The notes: generated by a model not told the origin, from the letters alone. A stretch of 19,380 nucleotides of DNA from Promethearchaeota archaeon (GCA_048941015.1 JBHLNZ010000056.1:1-19380); one strand, 5' to 3'; numbered from the stretch's first letter, positions 487 through 18,154 are shown. Made by a program: numbers and translations.

Positions 487-617
487 AATTTTTTTTGCTC
501 TAATTATACCGAATTTTTTAATTTAAGTGCATTAAATAAAATATTTATTGTTAGAACTCTTTAGCAATCTATCTGGAATTTAGCTTAAATCAAATAATCA
601 AAAATAGTGATTGTTAG

Positions 618-1025: not shown

Positions 1026-1290
1026 TTTGGTCCTACTGATTCTTATAAAAGCATATAAGTAGTTGATCTAAAAAACCTATTTTTAATCTCCATTGTGCCA
1101 TTTTCCTTAGGTTTAGAATACATATCTATCATCAAGGTATTTTTTATTATTTTATAAATTTATCAATTTTAATTAAACGTAAGTTTTAACTAATATGCTT
1201 ATAAAATTTTTAGGTTTCTCTATTTTTTAATAAACTAATGTTAATTATTTAAAGCAATTTACTTAAAATATTAAGACTTTGACACTTTTG

Positions 1291-1309
1291 AATAAACTTT
1301 TATATATAA
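1291..1309 (+). promoter_or_regulatory. Candidate archaeal BRE/TATA promoter for the 1351-6754 gene cluster
   Basis: AATAAAC followed by TTTTATATATAA about 45 nt upstream of ATG 1351. The AT-rich background limits specificity. Confidence 0.4.
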
Positions 1310-1350
1310 TTAAATCATAATTATCTTTACTAGCTGAGGTGAAAAATCTA

Positions 1351-2835: not shown

Positions 2836-4016
2836 CTGAAATAGAAAACTGGACATCATTATGCACCAGATGTGGCACCTGTCATACTATATACAAACTT
2901 AAATTGTGGGAAAGAAGCAACCCTGATTGGCTCCCAATTTGTCCTGCAGGGGAAAAATATGGTTTTGAACCATACTATTCTAGTGGCAAAATGTGGATTG
3001 CCAGAGGAGTCACAGAAGGTAAGTTGGATCTAGATGACCCGGGGCTTCTAAAGATAATCTATAGCTGCACTTTGTGTGGAAATTGTGAAAAGCAGTGCCA
3101 AACAGATATATTGAATGAACATATAACCGAAATAATTGAGGTTTTAAGAGAAAGAGCTGTAGAATCTGAAATAGGACCTATGCCGAAACAAAAAGAGTTT
3201 GGACAGTGGATTAAAAAAGAATATAACCCGTATATGGAACCTCATAAGGAAAGGCTAAACTGGTTTCCATTTGATATAGCAGAATTGCCTGATAAAGCCG
3301 ATATAGTATATTTTGTAGGTTGTACTTCTTCTTACAGACAAAAAAACATAGCATCAGCCACTGCAAACATTCTAAAGAAGTTAGCTCTCAACTTCACTAT
3401 TCTAGAGGATGAATGGTGTTGTGGTTCTCCACTCCAAAGAACTGGGCAATCAGAGACTGCAAGGGAGTGTGCAGTGCATAATATTGAAGAATTGAAAAAA
3501 GCTGGTGTAAAACAAGTTGTCACATCCTGCTCTGGATGTTATAGAATGCTAATCAAGGATTACAAAGAAAAATATGGATTAGATTATGATTTTGAGGTAA
3601 TACATTTTCCAGTCTTCCTTTTGGACTTGATCAATAAAGGAGACTTAAAACTGGAGAAAGGATTTAACCAAATAATAACATATCATGACCCATGTCACAT
3701 TGGTCGACATATGGGTATTTATGATTCTCCAAGAGAGCTATTAGAAAAAATTCCAGGTGTAAAACTTGTTGAAATGGATAGAATTAGGGATAATGCTTGG
3801 TGCTGCGGATCTGGAGGAGGCGTGAAATCAGCGTTTAATGACTTAGCGATGTTTGCTGCAAAAGAAAGATGTGATGAGGCTATGAGGACAGGTGCACAAG
3901 GTATAGTATCTTCATGTCCTTTTTGTTGGCGGAATTTAAATGATGCAATCGAAGAAAACAATCTAAACATAAAAATGTACGACCTTGTTGAACTTGTATG
4001 GGAATCAATTAAATAG
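2823..4016 (+). CDS. HdrD/GlcF-like Fe-S oxidoreductase (two 4Fe-4S motifs plus two CCG domains)
   Basis: CTRCGTC...CP and CTLCGNCEKQC, then CCG domains FVGC...WCCG...SCSGC and YHDPCH...WCCGSGGG...SCPFC. The GTG start overlaps the upstream gene by 13 nt. Confidence 0.9.
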   Translation: MEFITEIENWTSLCTRCGTCHTIYKLKLWERSNPDWLPICPAGEKYGFEPYYSSGKMWIARGVTEGKLDLDDPGLLKIIYSCTLCGNCEKQCQTDILNEHITEIIEVLRERAVESEIGPMPKQKEFGQWIKKEYNPYMEPHKERLNWFPFDIAELPDKADIVYFVGCTSSYRQKNIASATANILKKLALNFTILEDEWCCGSPLQRTGQSETARECAVHNIEELKKAGVKQVVTSCSGCYRMLIKDYKEKYGLDYDFEVIHFPVFLLDLINKGDLKLEKGFNQIITYHDPCHIGRHMGIYDSPRELLEKIPGVKLVEMDRIRDNAWCCGSGGGVKSAFNDLAMFAAKERCDEAMRTGAQGIVSSCPFCWRNLNDAIEENNLNIKMYDLVELVWESIK

Positions 4017-4108
4017 AATCCCAGATAAAATAATTAAATAAAACAATTTAATAAAAAAAGAAAGTAATAAAATTTTATAAAAATAAAATAAATAAAAAGG
4101 GAAAATAA

Positions 4109-4990
4109 ATGTGTAGACATTGTATAAAATTTGGAGATGGGAATAAATGGTATTTGAATCCAAAAAATTTCAGCGATGAAATGATTCACGGCGAATTAAC
4201 TAAGGTAAAAATGGAAGACACTATGGTAGGGCCACTCCTTGGCGTAAAAGGTACAATTCAAGAAATAATGACCACTGCACAACGCTTTAATTATGATATC
4301 GGTTTTGGAGAACATATAGATGCGGTTTTTCCAGACTTAAACGATGATATGGCCAATACAATGCGATCAGGATTACCTGATCTCATGGATAAAGCTGTTG
4401 GTGGACAAGTAGTTCCACTTGAGGATGCTCAGAAGATTATTGATCTGAATGAAGGAGATATCTTTGTACTTCCATGCATATGCCGAAAATATTATGGTGG
4501 AGTAGAAAAAATGAGTTGTATGTTCCTTAGACCAGCAGCGAAACCGTTACAGGAAAATTTATCTTGGGATACTCCAAATAAAATGGTATCTAAGGAAGAC
4601 GCAAAGGAAATGTTAAAGGAATTTGATAAAGAAGGCCTATTCCATGGTATTTTCTGGTGTCCAGCTCCAATTCCAACTATGCTCTGTAATTGCGAATATC
4701 CATACTGCATTGCACTTAGAGCGAGACTTCATTATGATATTATTGATACTTTTAGAAAGGGAGAATATGCCTCCCTTGTAGATCCCAATAAATGTGATGG
4801 GTGTGATGGTAACCCAAGTTGTCAAACTGCATGCTCATTTGGAGCCCTAAAATATTCACCAACTAATGGTAAAGTTAGTACGAATCAGATGCAGTGTTGG
4901 GGCTGTGGTTTATGTCGAACAGCATGCCCAAACAATGCAATAACACTTATACCTCGAGAAAACATTCCCCAAATCAAAGATATGTGGTGA
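4109..4990 (+). CDS. Cys-rich 4Fe-4S ferredoxin-domain protein of unknown function
   Basis: C-terminal CDGCDGNPSCQTAC and CWGCGLCRTACP ferredoxin motifs. Extra Cys motifs MCRHC, PCICR, SCMF and CNCEYPYC. Confidence 0.8.
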   Translation: MCRHCIKFGDGNKWYLNPKNFSDEMIHGELTKVKMEDTMVGPLLGVKGTIQEIMTTAQRFNYDIGFGEHIDAVFPDLNDDMANTMRSGLPDLMDKAVGGQVVPLEDAQKIIDLNEGDIFVLPCICRKYYGGVEKMSCMFLRPAAKPLQENLSWDTPNKMVSKEDAKEMLKEFDKEGLFHGIFWCPAPIPTMLCNCEYPYCIALRARLHYDIIDTFRKGEYASLVDPNKCDGCDGNPSCQTACSFGALKYSPTNGKVSTNQMQCWGCGLCRTACPNNAITLIPRENIPQIKDMW

Positions 4991-4999
4991 GGTTAGAAA

Positions 5000-5254
5000 A
5001 TGGTAACAATAAGGCCTGATATAATTTACAATAAAGAAAAATGCGGAGATCCAAGTGCTTGTTTAAAATGTATAAAAACCTGCCCTTATGTAGTGTTAGC
5101 GTATAGGCCCTCAGAGATTCCAGAACGACCCAATCCACCTGAAGATTGGGTTGTTGTCCCAACATGTCGCGTTATGTGTACTTATCCTTCTTGTAAAGCA
5201 TGTGTTGAGATATGCCCTAATGATGCTCTTAATATCTCTATTCCTAGCGCGTAA
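5000..5254 (+). CDS. Small 2x[4Fe-4S] ferredoxin-like protein
   Basis: CGDPSACLKCIKTCP and CTYPSCKACVEICP, with expanded first-Cys spacing. Starts 9 nt after the upstream stop, with an SD-like GGTGAGG. Confidence 0.8.
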   Translation: MVTIRPDIIYNKEKCGDPSACLKCIKTCPYVVLAYRPSEIPERPNPPEDWVVVPTCRVMCTYPSCKACVEICPNDALNISIPSA

Positions 5255-5306
5255 ACTATAAAAAATTTAATAAATTTTTTTTTTTAAATGAAAATTCTTG
5301 TATAAT

Positions 5307-5966
5307 ATGATACGCGAAAAAGTCCTATGTGCAGCCGCAGCAGCTTTTTTTTCTTCGCAAGGCTATTTTGTAAGGAGAAATTTCGAGATACCTGAAAAGA
5401 AAACCGTAGATATAATTTGTATTATGCCAAGGCTTTCTGATCTAAAGAATAGGATAAAGAGTAAATATTTTGTTCCATCGGGTATTCTCTATACCTTAAT
5501 CGGTCAGGGGTGGAAAAATGCTGAGGAAATAGCGATCGAAACTAATTCAAATATTCTTTTTATTAACTCCGCTTTAGAGGAAATAAGTGAGGATGGATGG
5601 GTAGAAAAGAAAAAAGAAAGCAATAAAATCCTATGGAGGCTCAAAAATTACAGGATTCCCTCTAAGGATTGTGTGATTGCACATTGTAAATATAGAGAAT
5701 GCATGGAGTTCTTAGAAAAACTCAGTGATTTTGATGGATACTACAATAAAGCTTATCTTATATTTCCTTACCCCATTGATGAGGAATTTATGGATTTATG
5801 CCATGAAAAAGGTGTTGGGATTATGATATTCTACGAAAATGTAGGTTTTTTTAAAGAATTAATACCACCAGAGTTTAAAGAAATTACTGGCTTAAAAACT
5901 TATGCAAACCTTTGTGAAGTTATTATCAAGGAGAATCTTTTATATAAATCAATAGATAGCATTTGA
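5307..5966 (+). CDS. Hypothetical protein: degenerate PD-(D/E)XK-like fold with an inserted winged helix-turn-helix
   Basis: Nuclease-fold pattern E..(helix)..GYFV...VDII...VIAHCK...KAYLIFP...GVGIMIF. The central segment ILYTLIGQGWKNAEEIAIET...INSALEEISEDGWVEK matches a wHTH pattern. Start could be TTG 5298 or ATG 5307. Confidence 0.55.
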   Translation: MIREKVLCAAAAAFFSSQGYFVRRNFEIPEKKTVDIICIMPRLSDLKNRIKSKYFVPSGILYTLIGQGWKNAEEIAIETNSNILFINSALEEISEDGWVEKKKESNKILWRLKNYRIPSKDCVIAHCKYRECMEFLEKLSDFDGYYNKAYLIFPYPIDEEFMDLCHEKGVGIMIFYENVGFFKELIPPEFKEITGLKTYANLCEVIIKENLLYKSIDSI

Positions 5967-5989
5967 GAAGATGTAAGGAGGAATTAATA

Positions 5990-6754
5990 ATGAATTTAAG
6001 AAAGGCATTAACATTTTCAATATCAGGTAAAGGTGGTGCGGGTAAGACAACATTGACAGCATTACTACTGAAAACATTATTGGAATCCAATAAACAGGAC
6101 ATTCTTGTGATAGATGCAGACCCTGCTATGAATCTACCAAGTGTTCTCGGGATTGAATTAAGGGATAAGACTACTCTAGGAATGATTTTGGATAAAAAGA
6201 AAGACGAGTTGGAGTCAGGATCTCATATCTACAGCAAACTTTTAGAGGGGGAAATATGGGAGAGTATTATTGATCAGAATGGTTTTGATATGTTAATAAT
6301 GGGGTGGAAGAAAGGTGAGGGTTGTTATTGCGCTCTTGATAGTTTTACTGCCATAATAATCGAATCTCTAACGAAAATGTATGATATTATTCTTATTGAT
6401 TTTTATGCTGGATTCGAACATCTTAGTCGAAGAACCGATAGATCTGCAGATATTCTTTTAATTGTCACAGACCCATCTAAAATGGGATTAGAAACCTCAC
6501 GTCGAATTAAAGAACTTGTTGAAGATGTGAATATATCATTCAAGGATATTTTTTTAATAGGTAATAGGTTTAATGCAGAGTTAGAACGCCAACTTTCCGA
6601 TTTTTCAAAAGAAATTGGAGTTAGATATGGGGGATTAATTCCATATGACAAGAACATCGCAGAATTTAATTTGAAGGGTATACCGCTAATTAATATGCCG
6701 AAGGATTCTCCAGCATTAATGGCAATAAAGAACATATTAAAAACAATATTCTAA
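5990..6754 (+). CDS. cooC: CooC/AcsF-type MinD-family ATPase (nickel-insertion accessory family)
   Basis: Deviant Walker A GKGGAGKTT, IDADP, metal-binding GCYC, and D..AGFEHLSRRT. AGGAGG (5976-5981) supports ATG 5990 rather than TTG 5963. Confidence 0.85.
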   Translation: MNLRKALTFSISGKGGAGKTTLTALLLKTLLESNKQDILVIDADPAMNLPSVLGIELRDKTTLGMILDKKKDELESGSHIYSKLLEGEIWESIIDQNGFDMLIMGWKKGEGCYCALDSFTAIIIESLTKMYDIILIDFYAGFEHLSRRTDRSADILLIVTDPSKMGLETSRRIKELVEDVNISFKDIFLIGNRFNAELERQLSDFSKEIGVRYGGLIPYDKNIAEFNLKGIPLINMPKDSPALMAIKNILKTIF

Positions 6755-6870
6755 ATCTATAGGTAATGTTCTAGAGGCTCATAATTTTCTAATTAATATA
6801 TATAATTTTTTTATTAGAATATAGCAGTCTTTTTAAAAAAATTAAATAGACATTTTTCTGATATATTAAT

Positions 6871-8220
6871 GTGAACCAAAATTTAAACCCTGAAATAATT
6901 CGAGAATATTATGCCAATGGTAAATTGGATAAAAATTCCGCTTTTAAATTGTTAATTTCAATAATAGAAAAAAGTAATGATGATACTAACAGGATAAAAG
7001 CTATTGAATTAATGGGAGAAATTGAATTTTCCAATTCAAAAGAATACGAAATTTTAGAAGAATTAATGGTTTCGGATTCAAATAAGTATGTTAGAGGTAC
7101 AGCAGGGAAAATTATTATCCATAATTTCATAGAAAAAGGAATAAAGCCAATAAAATGGGCAATAAGAAATGACCCTTCACTGGATTTTTTATTTATAATT
7201 ATGGAAGATTTAAAAGTAATTGATGAAAATGTTCTCCATTTAATTTTAATCAATAAATTTAAGGAGATAATTAGTAATAAGATAAACAATGCAAATAATA
7301 GATTTATTAAATATTACATTGAAGAATTTAAACGATTATTTAAGAAAAAGTCAATTTCAAAGTTTACATGTCAAAAACTTTGTGATATGTTCCTTAATTT
7401 TAAAGTAATTTCGCAATTAATACAAAAATATGCTATTAGTGATACTCATTTCAAGTATTATTTAAAAGATGGGCTTGTTGTTAGGTTAATGATAAATGGA
7501 CAAAACATCAGAAGAATAAAAGAGATCAATGGACTTGAAAAACTAATTAATTTGGAAATTTTGGATATTTCAATGAATCAAATTATCGAAATAAACGGCA
7601 TTGAAAGTTTAATCAACCTAAAAACATTATTATTAGGAAATTTTACTCACAACGACGGGAATGAAATAACTGAGATTAAAGGACTTGAATCCCTCACACA
7701 TTTAGAATATTTAGATCTATCTTTCAACCGTATTACCAAAATCAAAAACCTTGACAATCTTACTAGCTTAAAATTTCTAAGTTTAAGAAAAAATAATATT
7801 ATTGAAATAACGGGACTCAAAAAGCTTAGAAATCTTGAACGACTGAATCTTGGAGGAAATCAAATAAAAGAAATAAAAGGGCTTGAAAGACTTACTAATT
7901 TAAAACAATTATACCTTGAAGGAAATCAAATTACCGAAATAAAAGGACTCGAAACTCTAACAAATCTAGAATGGTTAGATCTTAGTTTTAATAGGATAAA
8001 AGAAATAGAAGGACTTGAAAACCTCCTTAAATTATCTGTTTTGAATCTTAATCATAATCAAATTACAGAAGTAAACAAATTGGAAAATCTAATCAATTTA
8101 CGTTTACTTCATCTTGATAAAAATCGAATAGTTAAAATATATAACCTTGAAAATCTCAAAAAACTTGATCATTTAAGTCTTGCATTTAATCCCATTACAG
8201 AAATTAAGGATTTAAATTAG
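6871..8220 (+). CDS. HEAT-like repeat plus SDS22-type leucine-rich repeat protein
   Basis: N-terminal helical repeats (RIKAIELMG, LMVSDSNKYVRGTAG) followed by about ten 22-aa LRRs of consensus LxxLxLxxNxIxEIxGLExLxN. Confidence 0.9.
   Translation: MNQNLNPEIIREYYANGKLDKNSAFKLLISIIEKSNDDTNRIKAIELMGEIEFSNSKEYEILEELMVSDSNKYVRGTAGKIIIHNFIEKGIKPIKWAIRNDPSLDFLFIIMEDLKVIDENVLHLILINKFKEIISNKINNANNRFIKYYIEEFKRLFKKKSISKFTCQKLCDMFLNFKVISQLIQKYAISDTHFKYYLKDGLVVRLMINGQNIRRIKEINGLEKLINLEILDISMNQIIEINGIESLINLKTLLLGNFTHNDGNEITEIKGLESLTHLEYLDLSFNRITKIKNLDNLTSLKFLSLRKNNIIEITGLKKLRNLERLNLGGNQIKEIKGLERLTNLKQLYLEGNQITEIKGLETLTNLEWLDLSFNRIKEIEGLENLLKLSVLNLNHNQITEVNKLENLINLRLLHLDKNRIVKIYNLENLKKLDHLSLAFNPITEIKDLN
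7552..8217 (+). repeat. 66-bp coding repeats underlying the LRR array
   Basis: Adjacent units are visibly similar at DNA level, e.g. cttggaggaaatcaaataaaagaaataaaagggcttgaa (7849) and cttgaaggaaatcaaattaccgaaataaaaggactcgaa (7915), 66 nt apart. Confidence 0.75.
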
Positions 8221-8345
8221 TTTTTAACTTTAAGAGATTCAACATTCTAATTTTTTAGTAATTTTAAATTTAAACCATTAAATATAATCTTTTAAATTCA
8301 TATCTGTCATACTTTTTTTTTAGATTTTTAAAATTTTACTTCTTG

Positions 8346-8361
8346 AAAAACTTTATATAAA
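8346..8361 (+). promoter_or_regulatory. Candidate BRE/TATA promoter upstream of aor
   Basis: AAAAAC-TTTATATAAA resembles the AAAC-TTTTATATA motif at 1294-1306. It lies just after a T-tract at about 8313-8321. Confidence 0.4.
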
Positions 8362-8451
8362 ATCTTGAGAAAATAAACAATGATATAAAAATTTATTCAT
8401 AAATTTGTGAAAATTCAATTAAAATAATATTCAATTAAAAGAGTTATAAAA

Positions 8452-10320
8452 ATGTATGGATATATGGGAAAAATTTTGCGAGTAGATCTTACAAATGGGA
8501 GAATAACTGAAGAATTTCCTGATGAAAATACTTTAAAGATGTTTCTAGGAGGAGCAGGATTAGCAACTAAATATCTTTTTGATGAAATTAAACCTGGAAT
8601 AGATCCATTAGGTTCAGAAAACAAGTTAATATTCATGACAGGCCCCTTAACAGGAACCCCTTCTCCAAGTACCGGAAGATACAGCATAGTTGCCAAATCC
8701 CCTCTCACTGGTATTTGGGGTCAGGGGAATTCAGCGGGTTTTTGGGGAAGAGATTTTAAAAGATCAGGTTTTGATGGGGCTATTTTCGAAGGAATATCAC
8801 CAAAACCAGTATATCTAGTTACAAACGATGGAAAAGCTGAGCTTAGGGATGCAACACATCTCTGGGGTAAAAATACTTCAGAAACTACACGATTAATAAA
8901 AGAGGAACTTGGAGAGAAGTTCAATGTTTCTTGTATAGGTCTTGGTGGAGAACTCCTAGTTAAATATGCAGCCGTTATGAATGATTGTGATAAACCAAAT
9001 TACGGTCGAGCAGCTGGAAGAACAGGTATGGGCACTGTTATGGGTTCTAAAAAATTAAAAGCTATTGCCTCACATGGCACAAAGACGATCGAAGTTGGAG
9101 AACCAGAATCATATAAAGAAGAAGCTAAAAAGAGGTATGATTGGGTTAATGAAAGTTTATTAAAAATGACTATTGAAGAATATGGAACTGCAGCAATAGT
9201 TGATATAACAAATGTCAAGGGTGGATTCCCCACAAGAAATTGGCAAACTGGAGTTTGTAAGTTTATAGATAAAATTAATGGAAGTACTATCAATGAAACG
9301 ATTCTTACCGGTAGAAAACCTTGTTTTGCTTGTCCTGTCGCTTGTGGACGGCTTGTAGAAATTAAAGAAGGTCCCTATAAAAGTAAAGGAGAGGGACCAG
9401 AATATGAATCAATTGGAGCGTTGGGTGCTATGTGCAACATTGATGATATTAATGCAATATCTTTTGCGCATTTCCTATGTAATGAATATGGTTTAGACAC
9501 GATTTCTGCTGGAAATACAATCGGTTTTGCCATGGAATGTTATGAAAAGGGAATATTAACTAAGGAAGACACAGGAGGTTTAGAGATTAACTTCGGTGAT
9601 GCAGACGTAGTTATAGATCTCGTGCATAAAATAGGTAAAAGAGAAGGTATTGGAGATTTATTGGCTGAAGGGACAAGAATAATGGCGAATAAACTTGGTA
9701 AAGATTCTATTAAATTTGCTATGCAGGTTAAAGGATTAGAACTTCCAGCTTACGATGTTAGAGCCGCTAAGATTATGGGATTAGCATATGCTGTTGCAAA
9801 TCGAGGAGGTGATCATATGACAGCTTTCATTCAAGGTCCATCTTTAATTGATATGCCTTTTATACTCGTTGATGATTCCTTTGTAGGAGATCCACTCCAA
9901 GAAATTCCAGAGAAGACTTATATCTGCAAGGATTTTGAAGATGCATTTGGTATATTTGATGCAATCGGGGGATGTAAATTCATGGGAGCCGTTTTAACTC
10001 AGGATGATTGGGCAACATTGATATCGAAACTTATGGGTTATGAATTTACTATAGAAGATTTTAGAAAAACTGGAGAAAGAATCTACAATCTTGAAAGAGC
10101 CTTTAATGTGAGAGAAGGAATAACTAGAAAAGATGATACCCTTCCCGCTCGCTTATTAGAAGAACCGTTACCTGAAGGTCCAGCTGAAGGACAAGTAGTA
10201 AATCTAGATCCTCTATTAGATACTTATTATGAGTTTCGAGGATGGGATAAGAATGGCATACCAACCCCTGAAAGGTTAAGAGAACTCGGATTAGATTGGG
10301 TTATTAAAGAAATTCATTAA
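8452..10320 (+). CDS. aor: Tungsten-dependent aldehyde:ferredoxin oxidoreductase family protein
   Basis: MYGYMGKILRVDLT, KSPLTG, GRAAGRTGMGTVMGSKKLKAI, CFACPVACG, GPEYES, GLDTISAG, VKGLELPAYD, RGGDH, the fourth cluster Cys in GGCKF, and YYEFRGWD. Confidence 0.95.
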   Translation: MYGYMGKILRVDLTNGRITEEFPDENTLKMFLGGAGLATKYLFDEIKPGIDPLGSENKLIFMTGPLTGTPSPSTGRYSIVAKSPLTGIWGQGNSAGFWGRDFKRSGFDGAIFEGISPKPVYLVTNDGKAELRDATHLWGKNTSETTRLIKEELGEKFNVSCIGLGGELLVKYAAVMNDCDKPNYGRAAGRTGMGTVMGSKKLKAIASHGTKTIEVGEPESYKEEAKKRYDWVNESLLKMTIEEYGTAAIVDITNVKGGFPTRNWQTGVCKFIDKINGSTINETILTGRKPCFACPVACGRLVEIKEGPYKSKGEGPEYESIGALGAMCNIDDINAISFAHFLCNEYGLDTISAGNTIGFAMECYEKGILTKEDTGGLEINFGDADVVIDLVHKIGKREGIGDLLAEGTRIMANKLGKDSIKFAMQVKGLELPAYDVRAAKIMGLAYAVANRGGDHMTAFIQGPSLIDMPFILVDDSFVGDPLQEIPEKTYICKDFEDAFGIFDAIGGCKFMGAVLTQDDWATLISKLMGYEFTIEDFRKTGERIYNLERAFNVREGITRKDDTLPARLLEEPLPEGPAEGQVVNLDPLLDTYYEFRGWDKNGIPTPERLRELGLDWVIKEIH

Positions 10321-10360
10321 AGAAGATGCTTGAATCTCTGATAAAGAAGAGGTGAATGCT

Positions 10361-12067
10361 TTGGTTGAAGAAGAAAAATTAACTTATGCAGATAAACCTT
10401 GGTTGAAAAGTTATAAAATTGGTGCCTACAAACTACCTCAAACCATGGAACCATACCCCAAAATATCCGTTTACAAGTTCCTCGAAGAGACAGCTAAAAA
10501 TTATCCCAATAATGTTGCTATAGTTTATTTGGGTGAGGAATTAACATATGAAAGTTTAAAGCTTCAAGTAGACAAGTTTGCAGCAGCACTGGCAGATTTG
10601 GGTGTGAAAAAAGGTGATAGAGTAGCAACAATTCTTCCAAATTGTCCACAGTACGTTATTTGCGATTATGCAATAATGAGATTAGGCGCAGTACATGTTC
10701 CTCTCAGTATATTACACAGAGCTCCCGATTTACTCTATGAGTTAAGTGAATCTGGAGCTGAAACAATAATCTGTTCTTATAGACGTTTAGAGCGTGTCAA
10801 TGAAGTAAAAGATGAAACGAACATAAAAACGATAATTTATACACCAACAAAAGTGTTCCCTGATTATTCCTCACCTGAACTAAAAGAAGTACCTAGAGCC
10901 TATTTATTAGAAGATTTAATGGAAAAATACGAACCTAATCCTCCAAATGTTGAAATAAACCCATTAGAAGACTTAGCAACTTTACCTTTTACTGGAGGCA
11001 CAACTGGTGTTCCGAAAGGCACCATGCAAACTCATTATAACATAACAACAAATGTAGTTCAAACATTACATTGGATGATGAAACCATTAACATCAGCAGT
11101 TAAAGGGAAAGCTTCTTTAGTAATATGTGTTCCTATTTTCCATCAATATGGGCATTGGGCTTTACATTCTTGCATTTCTTGGGGGTTGCGTATTTTTTTA
11201 ATGGATCCAAGAGATATTGATAGAATCGTGGAAGTAATAAAAGAATATCGTCCTTTCATGACTATTGGTGTTCCTACCCATTACATATTATTACTTAAAA
11301 AAGATCTTCAGAGGATACCAAAATTTTTCTATTCTGCTGCAGCTGCTCTTCCTGAAGAGGTTGCGGAACAATTTGAGAAGAAAATTGGTATTCCTATGGG
11401 TGAAGGGTATGGTGCGACAGAAACAACCGGGGGTACTCATTTAAATCTCACAGCACTTTCAAAAATTACTGGATTTATGGCAAAAGTAAAAAGAGGTATT
11501 GGAATTCCAGTTCCTGATACAGAAGTTAAAATTGTTGATCCAGAAACCGGTGAAGAAGTCCCATTTGGTGAAACTGGTGAAATCTGGGTTCGAGGCCCGC
11601 AAATAATGAAGGGTTATTGGCCAACACCAGGTAAAGGTCTAGCCGAAGAGGGTTGGCTTGCTATGGGTGATATTGGAAAAATGGATGAAGATGGCTATTT
11701 TTATATAGTCGATCGTATCAAAGATATGATTAATGTATCAGGAATGAAAGTTTATTCCAGAATTGTTGATGATATTTTATATGAACATCCGGCAATAAGA
11801 GAAGCAGGAGTTATTGGAATCCCAGACCCAGAACGCCCTGGAAGTGAAAGGGTAAAAGCTTTCATATCAATAAAACCGGACTTCGAAGGTAAAATTACAT
11901 CCGAAGAAATAATTGAATATTGCAAAGAAAAACTTCCACCCTATGCTGTACCAAAATTTATTGAATTTAAGGAGGATATGCCATTAACCCCTGTTATGAA
12001 GATCTTTAAGAGAAAACTTAGAGAAGAAGAGATAAAAAAGATGAAAGAGAGAGGCGAAATAAAATAA
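10361..12067 (+). CDS. Long-chain-fatty-acid--CoA ligase-like acyl-CoA synthetase (FadD family)
   Basis: FTGGTTGVPKG P-loop, EGYGATE, GEIWVRGPQIMKGYW, MGDIG.MDEDGYFYIVDRIKDMI, and the catalytic Lys in TPVMKI. The track's GTG 10352 lies within the SD GAGGTGA (10349-10355), so TTG 10361 is preferred. Confidence 0.92.
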   Translation: MVEEEKLTYADKPWLKSYKIGAYKLPQTMEPYPKISVYKFLEETAKNYPNNVAIVYLGEELTYESLKLQVDKFAAALADLGVKKGDRVATILPNCPQYVICDYAIMRLGAVHVPLSILHRAPDLLYELSESGAETIICSYRRLERVNEVKDETNIKTIIYTPTKVFPDYSSPELKEVPRAYLLEDLMEKYEPNPPNVEINPLEDLATLPFTGGTTGVPKGTMQTHYNITTNVVQTLHWMMKPLTSAVKGKASLVICVPIFHQYGHWALHSCISWGLRIFLMDPRDIDRIVEVIKEYRPFMTIGVPTHYILLLKKDLQRIPKFFYSAAAALPEEVAEQFEKKIGIPMGEGYGATETTGGTHLNLTALSKITGFMAKVKRGIGIPVPDTEVKIVDPETGEEVPFGETGEIWVRGPQIMKGYWPTPGKGLAEEGWLAMGDIGKMDEDGYFYIVDRIKDMINVSGMKVYSRIVDDILYEHPAIREAGVIGIPDPERPGSERVKAFISIKPDFEGKITSEEIIEYCKEKLPPYAVPKFIEFKEDMPLTPVMKIFKRKLREEEIKKMKERGEIK

Positions 12068-12070
12068 AAA

Positions 12071-12125
12071 TGATTTTATGATTTTTTAATCATAAACATC
12101 AATTCAAACAAAATTTCTTTTTTTT
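12071..12125 (+). terminator. Hairpin plus T-tract after the acyl-CoA ligase gene
   Basis: TTTATGATT (12075-12083) pairs with AATCATAAA (12088-12096) and extends to 12071/12101 with one bulge. A T-rich run follows at 12114-12125. Confidence 0.5.
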
Positions 12126-12216
12126 ATTATAAAAATTCCTAAACATGATATTAATAATCATTCTCTTTAATATATATTAAATTGAGCATGATAACTAAAA
12201 GATTGAAATAATATAT

Positions 12217-12510
12217 ATGAGCGTGGATAAGATCAAAATTACAGTAAAACTATTTGCGCAATTTAGAGAATTCCTTAAAAAAAATAAGATTGAAATTGAA
12301 GTAGAAGAAGGAACAAATATTTTTCAACTTATAGAATCTCTATGCGATTTATATGACTTAAGAGAGAAAATATTTGATAAGAAAAATGAAATTAAACAAC
12401 AGATTAATATTTTGAAAAATGGAAGGCAGATTAAGTTTTTAGAAGGTACTAAAACCAAACTTGAACATGGAGATGAAATATCATTATTCCCACCTATAAT
12501 GGGAGGATAA
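12217..12510 (+). CDS. MoaD/ThiS/SAMP ubiquitin-like sulfur carrier
   Basis: VKLFAQFRE, ILKNGR, TKLEHGDEISLFPPIMGG with a terminal Gly-Gly. MoaD-like genes are commonly found beside aor genes. Confidence 0.92.
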   Translation: MSVDKIKITVKLFAQFREFLKKNKIEIEVEEGTNIFQLIESLCDLYDLREKIFDKKNEIKQQINILKNGRQIKFLEGTKTKLEHGDEISLFPPIMGG

Positions 12511-12813
12511 TTTTACTTATGTATGTCATTTAAACGATTAGAAAATATAAAATTTCAAAGTATTAAGACTATTGATTGCTGTTTATTTATGGAAAATCCC
12601 TCATTAATGAAGAGTGATTATTTATGAAGTAGTATCCAATATTATTAGGAAAGATTGAAGGCTTTTTATATGATGGAGCAACAATTTACCATTTAAACAT
12701 AAAAAATAAATTATTTATAGTAATCTTTCTTAGATTAAATTTAGCCTTTTTCAAAATCTAAAAAAAGCTATTTAATAAAAATATTTTAAATAATATTAAA
12801 AAGGGTGAATGTA

Positions 12814-13278
12814 ATGGTTAAATTTGCAACTCAAGGGTGGTGTGATTTATATGCTAAAGCCCTTAATGAAAATGAAGCTTATAGAGAAGCGGCTGGACCT
12901 AAAGGTTTCCCACCCAATGGATGGGAAGGAGATTTTATCTTTGTAGTTGATGCTGGTGGCAATTTACCAGAAACCATACATATGTGGATAGGATTATGGC
13001 ATGGAGATTGTAAAGGAGCTAAAATTTTAAAAGAAGATGAGTATGTACTCATAAAACCAGGAGAAAAAGTCCCGGAAGGTAAAGTTGGAGTTGAATTTAT
13101 TTATTCTGCAACCTATCCTAATTGGGAGAAGATCTTAAAGAAAGAATTGGATTCAATTAAAGCATTATTGGGAGGTCAAGCGAAACTCCAAGGAGACATG
13201 GCAAAAGTTATGAGAGCTACAAAAGCTGCAGCAGAGATGGTAAATACATCAACTCAGATCGCGACTGAATTTTGGTAA
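12814..13278 (+). CDS. SCP2 sterol/lipid-binding domain protein
   Basis: KFATQGW..Y...LN.N..Y, WEGDFIF, LWHGDC, ATYPNWEKIL..ELDSIKALLGGQAKLQGDMAKVMR. The track's GTG 12805 lies within the SD GGGTGA (12803-12808), so ATG 12814 is preferred. Confidence 0.85.
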   Translation: MVKFATQGWCDLYAKALNENEAYREAAGPKGFPPNGWEGDFIFVVDAGGNLPETIHMWIGLWHGDCKGAKILKEDEYVLIKPGEKVPEGKVGVEFIYSATYPNWEKILKKELDSIKALLGGQAKLQGDMAKVMRATKAAAEMVNTSTQIATEFW

Positions 13279-13356
13279 GATAAAAAATTTTCCTTACTTT
13301 TTTAAATATCTCTTATTTTTTTTTCTTAAAATTAAGACATTTAAGAATTAACTCAA

Positions 13357-13380
13357 AATTCACGAAGGAATTCATGAATT
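13357..13380. terminator. Inverted repeat between convergent SCP2-like genes
   Basis: AATTCACGAA-GGAA-TTCATGAATT, a 10-bp stem with one mismatch (G-U on the minus strand). A T-tract at 13316-13324 (+) and A-tracts near 13393 flank it. Confidence 0.5.
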
Positions 13381-13411
13381 AATTAAATTGTAAAAAAAGT
13401 TAAGAAAAGAT

Positions 13412-13819
13412 TTAATCTAAAACAAGAACCTTAGAAAGTTTTAATAAAATCCCAAGATGACGTTTCCCATCACTTCCCTTTTCAGTTCGTAATTTTCTAT
13501 AACCAAATTCATTCTTTCTAGTTAGCATGTGTAAGCTTGAAGCTTGACCACTATGCATAGCCATTGAATCTTCTGGAGTAACTTTTAATGCCAAATCATA
13601 CTCGTCTAATTTACCTCTTGAAAAAGTATAATTTCCATTTTCTGCTATCATATTGCACCAAAAGTATTCATCTTGTCCAACTTGATAACCAATATTTATT
13701 CTCGCCTTAAATTCATCCATGGCTTTTGTATTTTTAGGATTTTTTCTTTTATCTTCTACTATGCTGTTAAGTGTTGCTTTTAAATTTAAAAATAAATTTT
13801 CCTTTTGATATTCTTCCAT
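13412..13819 (-). CDS. Hypothetical protein, probable divergent SCP2-like fold
   Basis: 135 aa. The segment AENGNYTFSRGKLDEYDLALKVTPEDSMAMHSGQAS fits the SCP2 hairpin-D-strand-helix-G pattern. SD-like GAGTGA lies upstream on the minus strand. Confidence 0.6.
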   Translation of the reverse strand: MEEYQKENLFLNLKATLNSIVEDKRKNPKNTKAMDEFKARINIGYQVGQDEYFWCNMIAENGNYTFSRGKLDEYDLALKVTPEDSMAMHSGQASSLHMLTRKNEFGYRKLRTEKGSDGKRHLGILLKLSKVLVLD

Positions 13820-13961
13820 AATTGATCACTCAGTTTAAACATATTTAAGAGTCTTTTTAATAAGTTTTTATCAAATGATATTTAAACTTTAAAAATATTT
13901 AAATATTGTTTTAGTATGTTTATATTACAAAAAAATAAAAAAAATGGGGTGAAAGAAATCA

Positions 13962-15167
13962 ATGTGGTTTTTTTATTGCCCAAATATTATTTATGGTGAT
14001 GACGCTGTAAATTATTTGGAGCAAATTGCGGGAGATAGAAATTTTATTGTCACTAATAAAAATCTTGAAAAAGTTGGTTTCCTAAAAATATTAACTGATA
14101 AATTTGATGGATGGGGTAAACATTACGAAATTTTTAATGAAATTAGTTCAGATAAGGAATGCAATGAAGATGACATTTTAAAAGGTAAAACGCCATGTAT
14201 ATCATATGAACCCGATACCATAATCGCTTTAGGTGGTGGATCTGTTATTGATGCTGCCAAAACAATTTGGGGTTTTTATGAATTTCCAGAATTCAGTATA
14301 GACGATTTTAATCCATTTAGAGAGGAATTAAAAGATCTTGGCAAAAAGGCAACATTCATTGCGATTCCAACAACGTCAGGAACTGGTTCAGAAACAACAT
14401 GGGCAATGGTTATATCACGAATTCTCGATGGTATCGAAACGAAATGTGGAACAGCTCATAGGGGATTTATCCCCCATTATGCTGTACTTGATCCCATTTT
14501 TCCTGCGGAAATGCCTCCAAAACTAACTGCCGGTACTGCGTTTGATGCACTAGCGCATTCATTTGAAGGATTGGCATCTTCTTATAGAAACGAGTTTAGT
14601 AATGCAATGGGCTTAAAAGCTATTGAACTTGTTTTTAAATATTTGCCAATTGCTTACAAGGACCCTAAGAACTTGGAAGTGAGAGATTACCTTCATCAAG
14701 CAGCGACTATGGCAGGTTTATGCTTTGGTAATGGCCAAGCTCATTTAGGACATTCATTTGGTCATCCTTTAGGGGCCGCTTTCCATATTCCTCACGGGTA
14801 TGCTGTTGGCCTTATGCTTCCTTATATTTCACAGTATTGTTTACTCAATCCTGATGAGGCTGATGTATCGGCTGGAATATATGCAAAAATTGCGAAACAG
14901 TTGAACTGGGCAAAATGGGAGGATGATGATAAAAAAGCAGCTAATAATGTCGTCAATAAAATTAAGGAACTAATGAAAGAAATTAATTTCCCACTTTCTC
15001 TTAAAGAATACGGAATTCAGAGAGAGCTCTTTGATAAAAAATTAGAATCGTTAGTTACTCAAGTTATCCAAGATCCATGTACATCAATGAGTCCTAGAAA
15101 TCCTAGTCTTGCAGAATTAGAAAAGATCTTAAAATATGCTTATGAGGGGAAAAATATAGATTTTTAA
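13962..15167 (+). CDS. Iron-containing (group III) alcohol dehydrogenase, paralog 1
   Basis: ALGGGSVIDAAK, IPTTSGTGSE, FDALAHSFE, AHLGHSFGH, HIPHG. SD GGGGTGA at 13946-13952. Confidence 0.93.
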   Translation: MWFFYCPNIIYGDDAVNYLEQIAGDRNFIVTNKNLEKVGFLKILTDKFDGWGKHYEIFNEISSDKECNEDDILKGKTPCISYEPDTIIALGGGSVIDAAKTIWGFYEFPEFSIDDFNPFREELKDLGKKATFIAIPTTSGTGSETTWAMVISRILDGIETKCGTAHRGFIPHYAVLDPIFPAEMPPKLTAGTAFDALAHSFEGLASSYRNEFSNAMGLKAIELVFKYLPIAYKDPKNLEVRDYLHQAATMAGLCFGNGQAHLGHSFGHPLGAAFHIPHGYAVGLMLPYISQYCLLNPDEADVSAGIYAKIAKQLNWAKWEDDDKKAANNVVNKIKELMKEINFPLSLKEYGIQRELFDKKLESLVTQVIQDPCTSMSPRNPSLAELEKILKYAYEGKNIDF

Positions 15168-15534
15168 AATATTTTTTTCCTTCTCTTTTTTTTAACTTTC
15201 AAGATTGAAAATCTACTTAAAGAATATTCACTTAGTAAATTCGTCATTATTTATTCGAGATAATCATTAGCTAGCATAAGAATGAAGATATAATCTTTAT
15301 ATTGTATAGAATTTTTAAATAATTCATATTCAGAATTAAGACTAAAAAAATTAATTAATCAATTAAAATTAATCTAATTTTACAATTTTTCGGTTTTTAG
15401 GATTTTTCCGTTTATTTGCAATTATAGTATATACAAATTATTGATTAATTATTTATTCTACTTAATATTAATAAATCTAATTCAAATATAAACAAAGTCA
15501 AAAAGAAGTATAAAATTAGGGTGAAAAATAATAA

Positions 15535-16734
15535 ATGTGGTTCTTTTTTGGTCCTAATATTATTTATGGAGAAGATGCTTTAGATTTCTTCGAGAATATT
15601 TCTGGAGAGAAGTGTTTTATATGTACGGATAAAGTTTTAGAAGATCTAGGCTATTTAAAAATATTAACCGATAGACTAGATAAATATGGAAAAAAATATA
15701 CTGTTTTTAATGATATTCTCCCTGATCCAAGAGAAGAAGGAGTATTAAAAGCACTAGAACTTTGTAAGCAATATGAACCGGAATTAATTATTGCATTAGG
15801 TGGAGGATCTGTAATGGATACTGCTAAAACTATATGGTGTTTGTATGAATTTCCAGAACTAACTCTGGATGATATACATGCATTCAGAACAGATTTATAT
15901 GATATGGGTAAAAAAGCTAAAATGATTGCGATTCCTACTACCTCCGGGACAGGTGCAGAAACAACCTATGTAACTGTTATTTCAAGATACGAAGATGAAA
16001 TCTGGAAGAAATTTTTATATCTTCATAGAGGGTTAATTCCTACTTATGCTATCGTGGATCCAATTTTTCCAGCAGGAATGCCTCCAAGATTAACTGCTGA
16101 TACTGCATTCGATGCGTTATCTCACTCAGTTGAAGCGATTGGAACTATTTGGAGAAATGATATTAGCAGCGCTTTAGCAACAAAAGCAATAGAACTTATC
16201 TTTCAGTATCTCCCTATTGCTTATAAAGATGGAAGTAATAAAGAAGCAAGAGATAAACTTCATCTAGCTGCAACTGTCGCAGGATTAGCTTTTGGAAACG
16301 CAAACGTGCATATTGGTCACACTTTAGGTCATTCTTTTGGAAGCATGTATCACGTTCCCCATGGAAGGTCAGTTGGAATAGTTTTAAAATATGTAACACA
16401 GTTTATTATGAATAATCATCAAGACCGTGAAGAAGTTTTAGCACAATACTCAAAGTTATCTAAACAATTAGGTTGGGTTAATTGGGACGAAGATGAAGAA
16501 AAAGCTGCTTACGTAGTAATAGAAAAAATTGAAAATCTACAAAAAGTAGTTGAATTTCCGACTAGTCTTAAAGAAACTGGGGTTTCAAAAGAAGATTTTG
16601 AAAATAATTTAGAAGAATTAGTCAATTTATGTTATCAAGACGCCAGTTCGGTCTTAGCACCAAGATCACCAAGTTCAGAGGAATTTAAAAAGATATACAG
16701 ATATTGTTTTGAAGGAAAAGATATCGATTTTTAA
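15535..16734 (+). CDS. Iron-containing (group III) alcohol dehydrogenase, paralog 2
   Basis: ALGGGSVMDTAK, IPTTSGTGAE, FDALSHSVE, VHIGHTLGH, HVPHG. SD GGGTGA at 15519-15524. Colinear with paralog 1 from MWFF to EGK.IDF. Confidence 0.93.
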   Translation: MWFFFGPNIIYGEDALDFFENISGEKCFICTDKVLEDLGYLKILTDRLDKYGKKYTVFNDILPDPREEGVLKALELCKQYEPELIIALGGGSVMDTAKTIWCLYEFPELTLDDIHAFRTDLYDMGKKAKMIAIPTTSGTGAETTYVTVISRYEDEIWKKFLYLHRGLIPTYAIVDPIFPAGMPPRLTADTAFDALSHSVEAIGTIWRNDISSALATKAIELIFQYLPIAYKDGSNKEARDKLHLAATVAGLAFGNANVHIGHTLGHSFGSMYHVPHGRSVGIVLKYVTQFIMNNHQDREEVLAQYSKLSKQLGWVNWDEDEEKAAYVVIEKIENLQKVVEFPTSLKETGVSKEDFENNLEELVNLCYQDASSVLAPRSPSSEEFKKIYRYCFEGKDIDF

Positions 16735-16809
16735 ATTTTTATTTCTTAATTTATAGCTTTTTTTTTTATATTCAAAATTTTCCTAAACTGTTAAACATGA
16801 GCTTGTAGA

Positions 16810-16950
16810 ATAAGGCATAATAATTTATTATCTCCCTTTATTCACTCACTACGAGTCCACCATCTCCTATTATTTCCAATGATGGGGCTGTATTTCGTAG
16901 CAAATCCAACCTCTTGAGGAAGGATTCCTCTGCCATCGAGGGTTGTTGTG
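16810..16950 (-). ncRNA. Candidate TnpB omega-RNA (reRNA) scaffold overlapping the 3' end of tnpB
   Basis: Locally GC-richer nested stems: CTACGA(16849-54)/TCGTAG(16895-900), CCATC(16860-64)/GATGG(16881-85), CAACCTC(16907-13)/GAGGGTTG(16938-45), GAGGAA(16916-21)/TTCCTC(16925-30). TnpB guide RNAs are known to arise from this position. Confidence 0.6.
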
Positions 16951-18154
16951 ATAGGAAATCAAATTGGTGCTTCTGTTTTAAAAATCGCTCCAAAATATTT
17001 ACGGCTGAATTTAAATCCCTATCCATATGATTTCCACAATCACACTTGATAACACGCTCTGAAAGAGCTCTTTTTGTCCGCTTCCCGCATATGCAACATT
17101 GTTGGGAAGTATACGATTCATCAATTCTTATTACTCTCTTACCTATTTTTTTTGCTTTATAGGTTAAGAATTGAGAAAATCGTCCTAAACTACCGGTGTT
17201 CTGAATAGAATGATTTAAAGTTTTTCGAGCTTTATTATTTTGTCTGTTTCCTATTTCATTTTGTTTTTTTACCATCTTTTTTACATCTAAGTCTCCAATA
17301 ATGATGGTATTTGCCCGAGTATTCTTAATGATTTTATTTGAAATTTTATGTTGATAGTCTTGCATTTGGTTTTTACATTTTTTTTTAATCTTAAGGAGTT
17401 TCCTATTATAAAATATCCAGCGATGACTGCCTCTTTTACAATGATCCCGCTTAGATTGGATTTCCTTCATTATATTATTCCAATATAAATCCGATCTACT
17501 ATTCTTTACTTGAATAAACTTAAAACTTAAATTTACAGCTGAAACAAGATTAATAACTCCTAAATCGATAGCTTGATATAAACCATTATCTTTATAGGTT
17601 GGTGCTTCTAATTCAAATACGATACAAATAAACCATTTATTATCTTTCTCCTGCTTGATTTCTACTTGCTTAATTTTATCAAATCCTTCATAAAAACTTG
17701 GTATTATGAAATTTAAGTTTATATTAGATGGATGTTTATGAGAAAAGTATAGAACTCGCTTGTCAATTTTAAAGCCACTCTGATTGTAACAAAGAGTAAA
17801 AAAATATTTTTTCCCTTTGAAACGGGGAGGGTGAGCATTTTTTTCTCCTTTTTCAATTTGAATAAAAAATGATTTAAAGTTCTCATCTAATTTTTTTAAT
17901 ACTTGTTGGAGTACTTTGGAATAAACCCATCGATATTCGGGATATTTCTGTTTAATAATAGGAAGAATTTTACTTTGTTGTTGATATGTCAGATAATGTC
18001 TTTCTTTTCTTTCTAAATTTTTTTTAGCTATCCAATCTTGTTTACGCTCTTGGAGGGCAAAATTGTATAAGAGTCGACATTTTTCTGAAAGATCCCATAA
18101 AACTTGTTCCTGCTCTAAGGAAGGCCAAATTCGGATTTTTTGAGTTAATAACAT
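16838..18154 (-). CDS. tnpB: RNA-guided endonuclease TnpB (IS200/IS605 OrfB family)
   Basis: N-terminal KIRIWPS.EQ...CRLLYNFAL helix, PPRFK, RuvC-I AIDLG (D197), IIIGDL, IDESYTSQ, Zn finger CCICG...CDCG, and RuvC-III DRDLNSAVNI (D380). Confidence 0.93.
   Translation of the reverse strand: MLLTQKIRIWPSLEQEQVLWDLSEKCRLLYNFALQERKQDWIAKKNLERKERHYLTYQQQSKILPIIKQKYPEYRWVYSKVLQQVLKKLDENFKSFFIQIEKGEKNAHPPRFKGKKYFFTLCYNQSGFKIDKRVLYFSHKHPSNINLNFIIPSFYEGFDKIKQVEIKQEKDNKWFICIVFELEAPTYKDNGLYQAIDLGVINLVSAVNLSFKFIQVKNSRSDLYWNNIMKEIQSKRDHCKRGSHRWIFYNRKLLKIKKKCKNQMQDYQHKISNKIIKNTRANTIIIGDLDVKKMVKKQNEIGNRQNNKARKTLNHSIQNTGSLGRFSQFLTYKAKKIGKRVIRIDESYTSQQCCICGKRTKRALSERVIKCDCGNHMDRDLNSAVNILERFLKQKHQFDFLSQQPSMAEESFLKRLDLLRNTAPSLEIIGDGGLVVSE

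Follow-up and report, generated by a model that had tools for sequence, protein, structure and literature searches.

A conserved aldehyde oxidoreductase, acyl-CoA ligase and SCP2 unit with candidate alcohol dehydrogenase feeders on an accessory island of an Asgard archaeon

This study asked what is made by a run of seven genes on a contig of an Asgard-type archaeon, and whether they work together as one pathway. The window, by which we mean the whole 19,380-nt stretch of DNA that was analysed (JBHLNZ010000056.1), is one entire contig (C132) of a 3.59-Mb metagenome-assembled genome that is 95% complete, and the loci nearest to it carry the label Promethearchaeota. A sequence-only reading of the window had picked out genes for an aldehyde:ferredoxin oxidoreductase (AOR), a FadD-like acyl-CoA ligase, a MoaD/SAMP sulfur carrier, two small SCP2-like proteins and two iron-type alcohol dehydrogenases (Fe-ADHs, here ADH1 and ADH2), and had proposed that they form a complete route from fatty or isoprenoid alcohols to acyl-CoA. 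All seven open reading frames (ORFs) were found where that reading had placed them and look intact (Table 1). The explanation that best accounts for the evidence overall, and to which we give somewhat better than an even chance, is that an AOR, a ligase and SCP2-fold proteins form a unit that turns aldehyde into acyl-CoA, with the Fe-ADHs feeding it.

The strongest evidence lies in the conservation of the core. Eighty loci around relatives of the AOR were taken from species-representative genomes, the window proteins were mapped onto them with tblastn, and all ORFs of the loci were clustered. Wherever a locus had room for it, a ligase orthologue almost always came directly after the AOR (at least 56% identity), namely in 18 of 18 Asgard loci and 37 of 38 bacterial loci (55/56 overall), the bacteria being Dehalococcoidia, other Chloroflexota, Thermodesulfobacteriota, Syntrophaceae, Syntrophomonadaceae and Actinomycetota. 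After AORs of 43–48% identity no ligase was present in any of eight loci. A gene of the SCP2 family lay within 6 kb of the AOR in 18 of the 22 Asgard and 27 of the 44 bacterial loci (45/66) and in none of 13 outgroup loci, ORF clustering placed the family in 48 loci, and MoaD was found beside the AOR, within the same distance, in 15 of the 66 related loci.

The phylogenies tell a similar story. In the AOR tree, the sequences linked to a ligase group in one clade (SH-aLRT 100) that divides into an Asgard and a bacterial branch. The linked ligases likewise form a clade of their own (SH-aLRT 100), apart from the genome's own ligase paralogues, and its archaeal and bacterial subclades mirror those of the AORs. 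The genome carries about 11 AOR paralogues, of which that of the window is the only one beside a ligase. In two loci, L017 of Thorarchaeota (10001–13636) and L015 of Thor type (10001–13642), AOR and ligase are a single ORF of 1,211 and 1,213 aa, respectively, with genes for MoaD, SCP2 and the 135-aa protein of the window located divergently upstream. In the closest relative of the window, L002, AOR and ligase are each 81% identical to those of the window and synteny is complete from the flavoprotein gene to the 135-aa gene. Taken together, the linkage counts, mirrored trees and fusions establish AOR, ligase and SCP2-fold protein(s), often with MoaD, as a conserved functional unit, one that is real and old. 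The clustering noted earlier is not due to chance for AOR, ligase and SCP2, and the case is weaker for the ADHs. When the neighbourhood was followed across Asgard genomes, the core proved widespread and not peculiar to this genome, while Fe-ADHs near the pair were seen in only two of the 22 other Asgard loci, L003 (Hodarchaeota) and L016 (Heimdallarchaeota).

Both enzymes of the core have the features expected of their families. The AOR matches AFOR_N (PF02730, E 6e-74) and AFOR_C (PF01314, E 4e-144) over their full lengths and aligns end to end with the Pyrococcus furiosus AOR (1aor, E 5e-153), compared to which it retains the [4Fe-4S] ligands, in a CxxCxxxC motif (CfaCpvaC) and a fourth Cys (ggCkf), as well as the equivalents of the catalytic residues Glu313 (the Glu of EGPEYE) and His448 (the His of GG(D/C)H, here GGdH). 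A tungsten cofactor and aldehyde oxidation are predicted. The ligase has an AMP-binding domain (E 7e-92) and AMP-binding_C according to Pfam, and the motifs of the ANL superfamily, TGGTTGxPKG, GYGxTE and the C-terminal catalytic Lys region, can be read in its translation. The ligase gene begins 31 nt past the stop codon of the AOR, a gap that widens to 40 nt with the in-frame TTG at 10361 as start, and is probably co-transcribed with the AOR.

Of the small proteins, the MoaD/SAMP1 carrier passes both NCBIfam cut-offs (NF041918, 82.1 bits with a cut-off of 60; TIGR01687, 79.7 with a cut-off of 49.5) and ends in MGG, i.e., in Gly-Gly. The two genes that had been called SCP2-like fared differently. 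The first has a PF02036 score of 18.1, under the cut-off of 21.3, and matches the SCP2 of Thermus thermophilus (TT1886, PDB 2cx7/1wfr) over its whole length with an E value of 1e-13; PF02036 matches 20 of its 24 orthologues (best 2e-13), so that its sequence identifies it as an SCP2 homologue. It carries an insert of 15–20 residues that is common to L002, L003, L012, L015 and L017. The product of the second gene, the 135-aa protein, showed no similarity to SCP2 by Pfam, PDB, BLAST or hhalign searches, and a sequence-level link between the two small proteins was looked for and none was found. Its AlphaFold2 model has a pLDDT of 70 (below 50 at residues 88–110), and Foldseek returned SCP2 structures for all of the top 16 hits (E about 1e-4), with TM-scores of only 0.45–0.57 and methyltransferases among the weaker ranks. 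The sole ESM look-alikes bearing a family assignment carry SCP2, and in L002, L015, L017 and L027 the 135-aa gene, for which seven orthologues are known (alignment A1), adjoins that of SCP2. There is moderate support, then, for an SCP2-like protein, by predicted fold only. In alignment A2 the module-linked SCP2 proteins fall into two types, one of Asgard and Dehalococcoidia with a WEGD motif and one of deltaproteobacteria and Chloroflexi that is extended at the C terminus by about 25 conserved aa (PDEMSxxxLExY...).

The probable role of the core is to convert aldehydes of low solubility to acyl-CoA in the absence of oxygen. The tungsten-pterin AOR would oxidize an aldehyde to the free acid, passing two electrons to a ferredoxin-type acceptor, for which the products of 4109–5254 are candidates, and the ligase would convert this acid to an acyl-CoA suitable for beta-oxidation. 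One or two SCP2-fold proteins may bind the sparingly soluble substrate or product, MoaD would serve in sulfuration of the pterin, and the two Fe-ADHs, separately transcribed, would oxidize alcohol to aldehyde and so probably feed the unit. The order aldehyde, acid, acyl-CoA, which the earlier reading had also proposed, is upheld because no other reading explains why AOR and ligase are fused in some loci and inherited together. Fusion and strict coupling of these enzymes make sense if the product of the AOR is the substrate of the ligase. The direction, the role of SCP2 as a carrier, the participation of the ADHs and the ferredoxin partner are all inferred.

Catabolism is supported by the acyl-CoA dehydrogenase (ACAD) and beta-oxidation contexts of the unit and, in bacteria, by sigma-54/PAS regulators; ACADs and sigma-54 regulators are frequent beside the bacterial pairs. 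Elsewhere in the window genome there are beta-oxidation genes, with at least eight ACAD matches as well as matches to 3HCDH and thiolase. As to the substrate, the likeliest class is that of medium- to long-chain hydrophobic compounds, aliphatic or isoprenoid, a choice that we make tentatively and at clearly less than even odds of being right. It is favoured because of the persistence of SCP2, the ACAD neighbours, the beta-oxidation genes of the genome and of L037, and the extra canonical SCP2 and alpha/beta-hydrolase found in Dehalococcoidia loci. The Chloroflexi locus L037 has the gene order Zn-ADH, FadB-like, thiolase, VLCAD-like ACAD, GMC oxidoreductase, AOR, ligase, SCP2, ligase and ACAD, and the same stretch (1–17228) also holds a thiamine pyrophosphate (TPP) enzyme. 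Anaerobic alpha-oxidation, with a 2-hydroxyacyl-CoA lyase (HACL) feeding the AOR, was considered and rejected, as the TPP enzyme of L037 is closest to acetolactate synthases (HACL score 235, cut-off 600).

Several observations weigh against this explanation, and they bear on different parts of it. AORs work in both directions, and a literature search found no characterised enzyme from either the AOR clade or the ligase clade of the window. The binding of hydrophobic ligands by SCP2 is putative. The top NCBIfam families of the ligase are named long-chain-fatty-acid-CoA ligases (E 5e-118), and it scored below every curated FadD cut-off (PRK08314, 394.8 vs. 705; PRK08974, 326.9 vs. 884); its top PDB relatives include FadD-type enzymes and, to an equal degree, feruloyl-CoA synthetase and 4-coumarate ligases. 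A flavoprotein resembling p-cresol methylhydroxylase (PCMH) is encoded upstream, which, along with the BadF/G and HGD-D proteins of Syntrophaceae, hints at aromatic or other substrates. The ADHs are 1.9 kb from the core with a minus-strand gene in between, their nearest solved relative is the ADH domain of the short-chain enzyme AdhE, L002 has no ADH in the 6 kb past its 135-aa gene, and there is no Fe-ADH near the pair in 20 of the 22 other Asgard loci. Of the proposed fatty or isoprenoid alcohol route, the conserved AOR–ligase–SCP2–MoaD unit stands, and the chain class is putative, given a ligase below the FadD cut-offs and AdhE-like ADHs. It may also be that the unit serves different substrates in different lineages.

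The ADHs raise the most serious alternative, that the unit consists of AOR, ligase and SCP2 (with or without MoaD) only, and that the Fe-ADHs are unrelated short-chain enzymes, acting on ethanol, propanol or butanol with any of the roughly 11 AORs, which were brought to this place by rearrangement of the island. Their distribution in Asgard loci and their kinship with AdhE speak for it, as do gaps of 142 and 367 nt before ADH1 and ADH2, indicating separate transcription units, the convergent/divergent gene in between, and the TnpB and leucine-rich-repeat (LRR) genes that flank the region. Both ADHs, which are 54% identical to each other, have PF00465 and PF25137, a GGGS nucleotide motif and intact Asp/His/His/His metal ligands, and ADH2 matches the ADH domain of AdhE (3zdr) with an E value of 3e-74 and the D/H/H/H ligands kept. 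Against this, Fe-ADHs adjoin the pair independently in Hodarchaeota, Heimdallarchaeota, Bathyarchaeia and Dehalococcoidia. Beyond the Asgard loci they are near the pair in the one Bathyarchaeia locus and in 8 of 44 bacterial loci, typically in the order SCP2, ADH, AOR, ligase in Dehalococcoidia. ADH1, ADH2, a paralogue on contig C118 of the same genome and the module-linked ADH of L003 constitute one clade, and all three members from the window genome are within about 5 kb of an AOR. Two same-order genomes have a paralogous set, arranged as ligase, AOR and an o135b-like gene on one strand and, divergent from these, ADH and SCP2, in which the ADH is 47–52% identical to those of the window. Fusions of SCP2 and ADH exist as well: a word-index search gave none, but an exhaustive HMMER search with the SCP2 alignment found a 717-aa SCP2–Fe-ADH protein (P0103), on two metagenome contigs, and a fragment of an SCP2–Zn-ADH protein (P0138).

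Because of the shared clade, the paralogous set and the SCP2–ADH fusions, the ADHs can be tied to the unit, and we regard unrelated ADHs as unlikely. The preferred explanation then is that of an AOR–ligase–SCP2 core to which the ADHs are a modular feeder, optional for the core and a local add-on; that the two ADHs of the window work with its own AOR we put at just short of an even chance. The view of the seven genes, with two ADHs, as a unit is not supported, as this set was found in no other locus searched, and L002 and most Asgard loci are without ADHs. On C118 the AOR paralogue (55870–58952, minus strand) contains one in-frame TAA, which may indicate a pseudogene or a mistake in the assembly; it is located 159 nt downstream of an Fe-ADH that is 66% identical to ADH2. 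The paralogous set, seen at L101 (5466–11281, in the closed same-order genome G038) and L103, has a ligase 37%, an AOR 36%, an Fe-ADH 47–52% and an SCP2 42% identical to those of the window, with a 132-aa o135b-like gene divergent from the Fe-ADH, and constitutes another AOR/ligase pair, separate from the first, with accessory genes of the same kinds.

A further alternative keeps the chemistry but applies it to aromatic or phenylpropanoid substrates, such as lignin-derived benzyl and cinnamyl alcohols and aldehydes, with the flavoprotein and its CCG-domain partner performing the first oxidation. Such a pathway would be the anaerobic analogue of the eugenol route (ehyAB-calA-calB-fcs) or the p-cresol route (pcm). 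The flavoprotein, in its FAD domain, is nearest to PCMH (1dii, E 5e-30) and to eugenol and vanillyl-alcohol oxidases (up to 1e-28), followed by D-lactate dehydrogenases (E 4e-21), feruloyl-CoA synthetase and 4-coumarate ligases are among the top PDB relatives of the ligase, and in Syntrophaceae loci the pair is followed by two BadF/G ATPases and an HGD-D protein. The pair of FAD_binding_4 flavoprotein and CCG protein recurs with AOR and ligase in L002, L031 and L035, but only 4 of 66 loci have it. In addition, the HGD-D protein is ambiguous as to type (about 1e-15 for double-cubane reductase, BCR-B and HadB alike), and SCP2, VLCAD-like ACAD, FadB and thiolase contexts better suit aliphatic chains. 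PCMH-type oxidation of phenols by the flavoprotein was rejected, as the Tyr-Tyr-Arg phenolate triad is incomplete, with a gap at PCMH Tyr95, Tyr473 kept and Arg474 replaced by Lys. The flavoprotein may represent a separate branch of the vanillyl-alcohol oxidase (VAO) superfamily, paired with a CCG Fe-S protein, and the two (1339–4016) are a possible alternative feeder dehydrogenase. On balance, aromatic substrates appear decidedly unlikely, and a hydrophobic aliphatic or isoprenoid chain is preferred.

AdhE-type ADHs often act reductively, which can be counted in favour of a reverse flow, as in acetogens and engineered Pyrococcus, whereby the AOR would reduce free acid with ferredoxin and the Fe-ADHs would make alcohol as an electron sink, the ligase being reversed or unconnected. 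Although energy-limited syntrophs need electron sinks and AORs reduce non-activated acids (PMC9295118, PMC12727526), this is very improbable, as a conserved and sometimes fused AMP-forming ligase has no part in acid reduction, and the ACAD and beta-oxidation neighbours and the catabolic regulators indicate oxidation.

Table 1. Features of the 19,380-nt window, with the basis of each assignment.
Feature	Position	Strand	Basis
Metallophosphoesterase	1-486		
ORF without assigned family	618-1025		
VAO/PCMH-like flavoprotein	1339-2835	+	Pfam
Fer4 + 2xCCG protein	2823-4016	+	Pfam
Fe-S protein with C-terminal 2x[4Fe-4S] domain; candidate electron-transfer partner	4109-4990	+	Pfam, PDB
Small ferredoxin-like protein; candidate AOR electron acceptor	5000-5254	+	Pfam Fer4
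222-aa protein, co-conserved with the module	5298-5966	+	no Pfam/NCBIfam match
CbiA/MinD/CooC-type P-loop ATPase; possible metallocentre maturation	5963-6754	+	Pfam, NCBIfam
LRR protein 1	6871-8220		
Tungsten-type aldehyde:ferredoxin oxidoreductase (AOR proper)	8452-10320	+	Pfam, PDB, tree
AMP-forming acyl-CoA ligase (ANL superfamily, FadD/4-coumarate ligase-like)	10352-12067	+	Pfam, NCBIfam
MoaD/SAMP1-type small sulfur carrier	12217-12510	+	NCBIfam
SCP2-family lipid-carrier-fold protein	12805-13278	+	PDB, Pfam of orthologues
135-aa conserved Asgard protein, SCP2-like by predicted fold only	13412-13819	-	AlphaFold2, Foldseek
Fe-type alcohol dehydrogenase 1 (ADH1; lineage-specific feeder)	13962-15167	+	Pfam
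Fe-type alcohol dehydrogenase 2 (ADH2)	15535-16734	+	Pfam, PDB
TnpB/IS605 OrfB, directly downstream of ADH2	16838-18154	-	
LRR protein 2	18353 to contig end (18353-19378)		

Upstream of the AOR, the genes between 4109 and 6754 are conserved along with the module in L002 and also in the bacterial domain, where they occur in L024 and L028 of Chloroflexi, a fact that escaped the sequence-only reading. Their products are plausible partners in electron transfer or maturation. The small ferredoxin-like protein, the 222-aa protein and the ATPase have orthologues in all three of these loci. The family of the Fe-S protein is present in eight loci with the AOR–ligase pair, including some of Dehalococcoidia and Desulfobacterales, and directly flanks the pair in L050, L052, L055 and L058; beyond generic ferredoxin motifs, the window protein matched none of the known electron-transfer subunits of AORs specifically. 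An Rfam scan of the whole window returned zero matches.

In other lineages the feeder position is occupied by a variety of genes, and unrelated types of alcohol-oxidizing enzymes have repeatedly been recruited beside the unit. Four Chloroflexi loci have a GMC oxidoreductase at this position, the best curated match of which is cholesterol oxidase (565 bits, under the cut-off), with loci in the order GMC, AOR, ligase, SCP2. In L002, L031 and L035, as in the window, the FAD_binding_4 flavoprotein and its CCG partner play this part, and TPP enzymes are also among the feeders that vary with lineage. In Desulfobacterales a split transketolase and a metallo-beta-lactamase-fold protein are found there; L054, L057 and L059 have a sigma-54/PAS regulator followed by these genes and then by AOR, ligase, SCP2 and MoaD.

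The surroundings of the module in the window have the character of a rearranged accessory island, given the placement of the segment 618–13278, an LRR gene that has come between the ATPase and AOR genes, and a TnpB gene downstream. The contig begins with a metallophosphoesterase gene, which elsewhere closes the canonical Loki block, and 618–13278 lies between this and the 135-aa gene, two genes that are adjacent in L008 and L029 (from ORF maps) and in L007 and L009 (by tblastn). The ATPase–AOR junction split by the first LRR gene is contiguous in L002. No orthologues of the AOR, ligase or 222-aa protein were detected in 24 same-genus and 16 same-order genomes, a sample in which some genomes are incomplete; the same-genus search for AOR gave no match at E ≤ 1e-150, and the best ligase match, of 42–44% identity, had neither an AOR nor an SCP2 gene next to it. 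Same-genus genomes retain the canonical Loki neighbourhood, from PheRS through DUF1512 and SCP2 to HAD and PPDK, and at this locus (L096–L100, L102) there is no AOR–ligase pair between DUF1512 and SCP2, the place at which other Loki lineages have the order DUF1512, AOR, ligase, SCP2, HAD. The canonical DUF1512–SCP2 block is absent from the assembly of the window genome. A non-orthologous replacement in the 3.7-kb gap between SCP2 and HAD of same-genus genomes was sought and rejected, since the gap encodes CBS-domain, zinc-ribbon and SLATT-like proteins and not enzymes.

In annotation, AORs are mostly treated as generic sinks for aldehydes that come from amino acids. An AOR clade that stays coupled to a ligase and an SCP2-fold protein across two domains of life, with both enzymes in one polypeptide in some loci, points to a dedicated pathway that needs no oxygen, leads from hydrophobic aldehydes or alcohols to acyl-CoA and delivers low-potential electrons. 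Such a route would fill a gap in the understanding of how microbes of anoxic sediments, among them the archaea most closely related to eukaryotes, make use of alcohols derived from lipids, and would make a natural AOR–ligase pair available to biocatalysis. The window adds two points to this, the modular nature of the ADH feeder and the behaviour of the entire unit as an accessory island. A bolder and rather unlikely possibility is that the AOR, the ligase and the SCP2-fold proteins assemble physically into a complex for channelling, equivalent to the Thorarchaeota fusion but made of separate proteins, and that this is a general, anaerobic, ferredoxin-yielding counterpart of the fatty-alcohol/aldehyde cycle. 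If this were the case, Asgard archaea of sediments, as well as Bathyarchaeia, Dehalococcoidia and sulfate reducers, would feed alcohols and aldehydes derived from lipids (products of wax esters, ether lipids, phytol or sterol side chains) into beta-oxidation, and Asgard archaea would have a route from isoprenoid and ether lipids to acyl-CoA pools.

When compared with known systems, the logic of the pathway is familiar from aerobic and eukaryotic examples, while the conserved AOR–ligase–SCP2 unit is apparently undescribed, a literature search having turned up no paper on a clade of AORs tied in this way to an acyl-CoA ligase and a protein of SCP2 fold. Features local to the window are the pair of ADHs, the block of flavoprotein and Fe-S genes, and the location on an island. 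The combination of Fe-type ADH and tungsten AOR resembles the ethanol-related ADH–AOR couples of Clostridium autoethanogenum (PMC12727526) and engineered P. furiosus (PMC12094016), but these handle C2–C4 compounds, mostly reductively, and are without ligase or SCP2. The AORs of P. furiosus (1aor), C. autoethanogenum (9g7j) and Aromatoleum (AorB, 8c0z), together with 9mqx_D, have the same two Pfam domains (E 1e-155 to 1e-125), but the window AOR belongs to a separate clade, nearly always followed by or fused to a ligase and with SCP2 nearby, and no subunits of AorA or AorC type are encoded beside it. The ligase has the ANL fold in common with Escherichia coli FadD and the curated long-chain families but falls far under their cut-offs, its similarity in the PDB to feruloyl-CoA and 4-coumarate ligases equalling or exceeding that to FadD-type enzymes. 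The SCP2 protein is homologous to Thermus TT1886 over its whole length, but is under the Pfam cut-off and differs by its insert. The closest parallels are the alkane pathway of Pseudomonas, with AlkJ (a GMC alcohol dehydrogenase), AlkH (an aldehyde dehydrogenase, ALDH) and AlkK (an acyl-CoA synthetase), and the eukaryotic fatty-alcohol pathway, with fatty alcohol:NAD oxidoreductase/FALDH, ACSL and SCP2. They share with the unit the sequence of steps from alcohol through aldehyde and acid to acyl-CoA and beta-oxidation, most visibly in the GMC, AOR, ligase and SCP2 genes of Chloroflexi. In the AOR-based unit, however, an oxygen-sensitive, ferredoxin-linked tungsten AOR takes the place of the NAD(P)-dependent ALDH, the SCP2-fold protein is encoded within the operon, and AOR and ligase can be fused into one protein.

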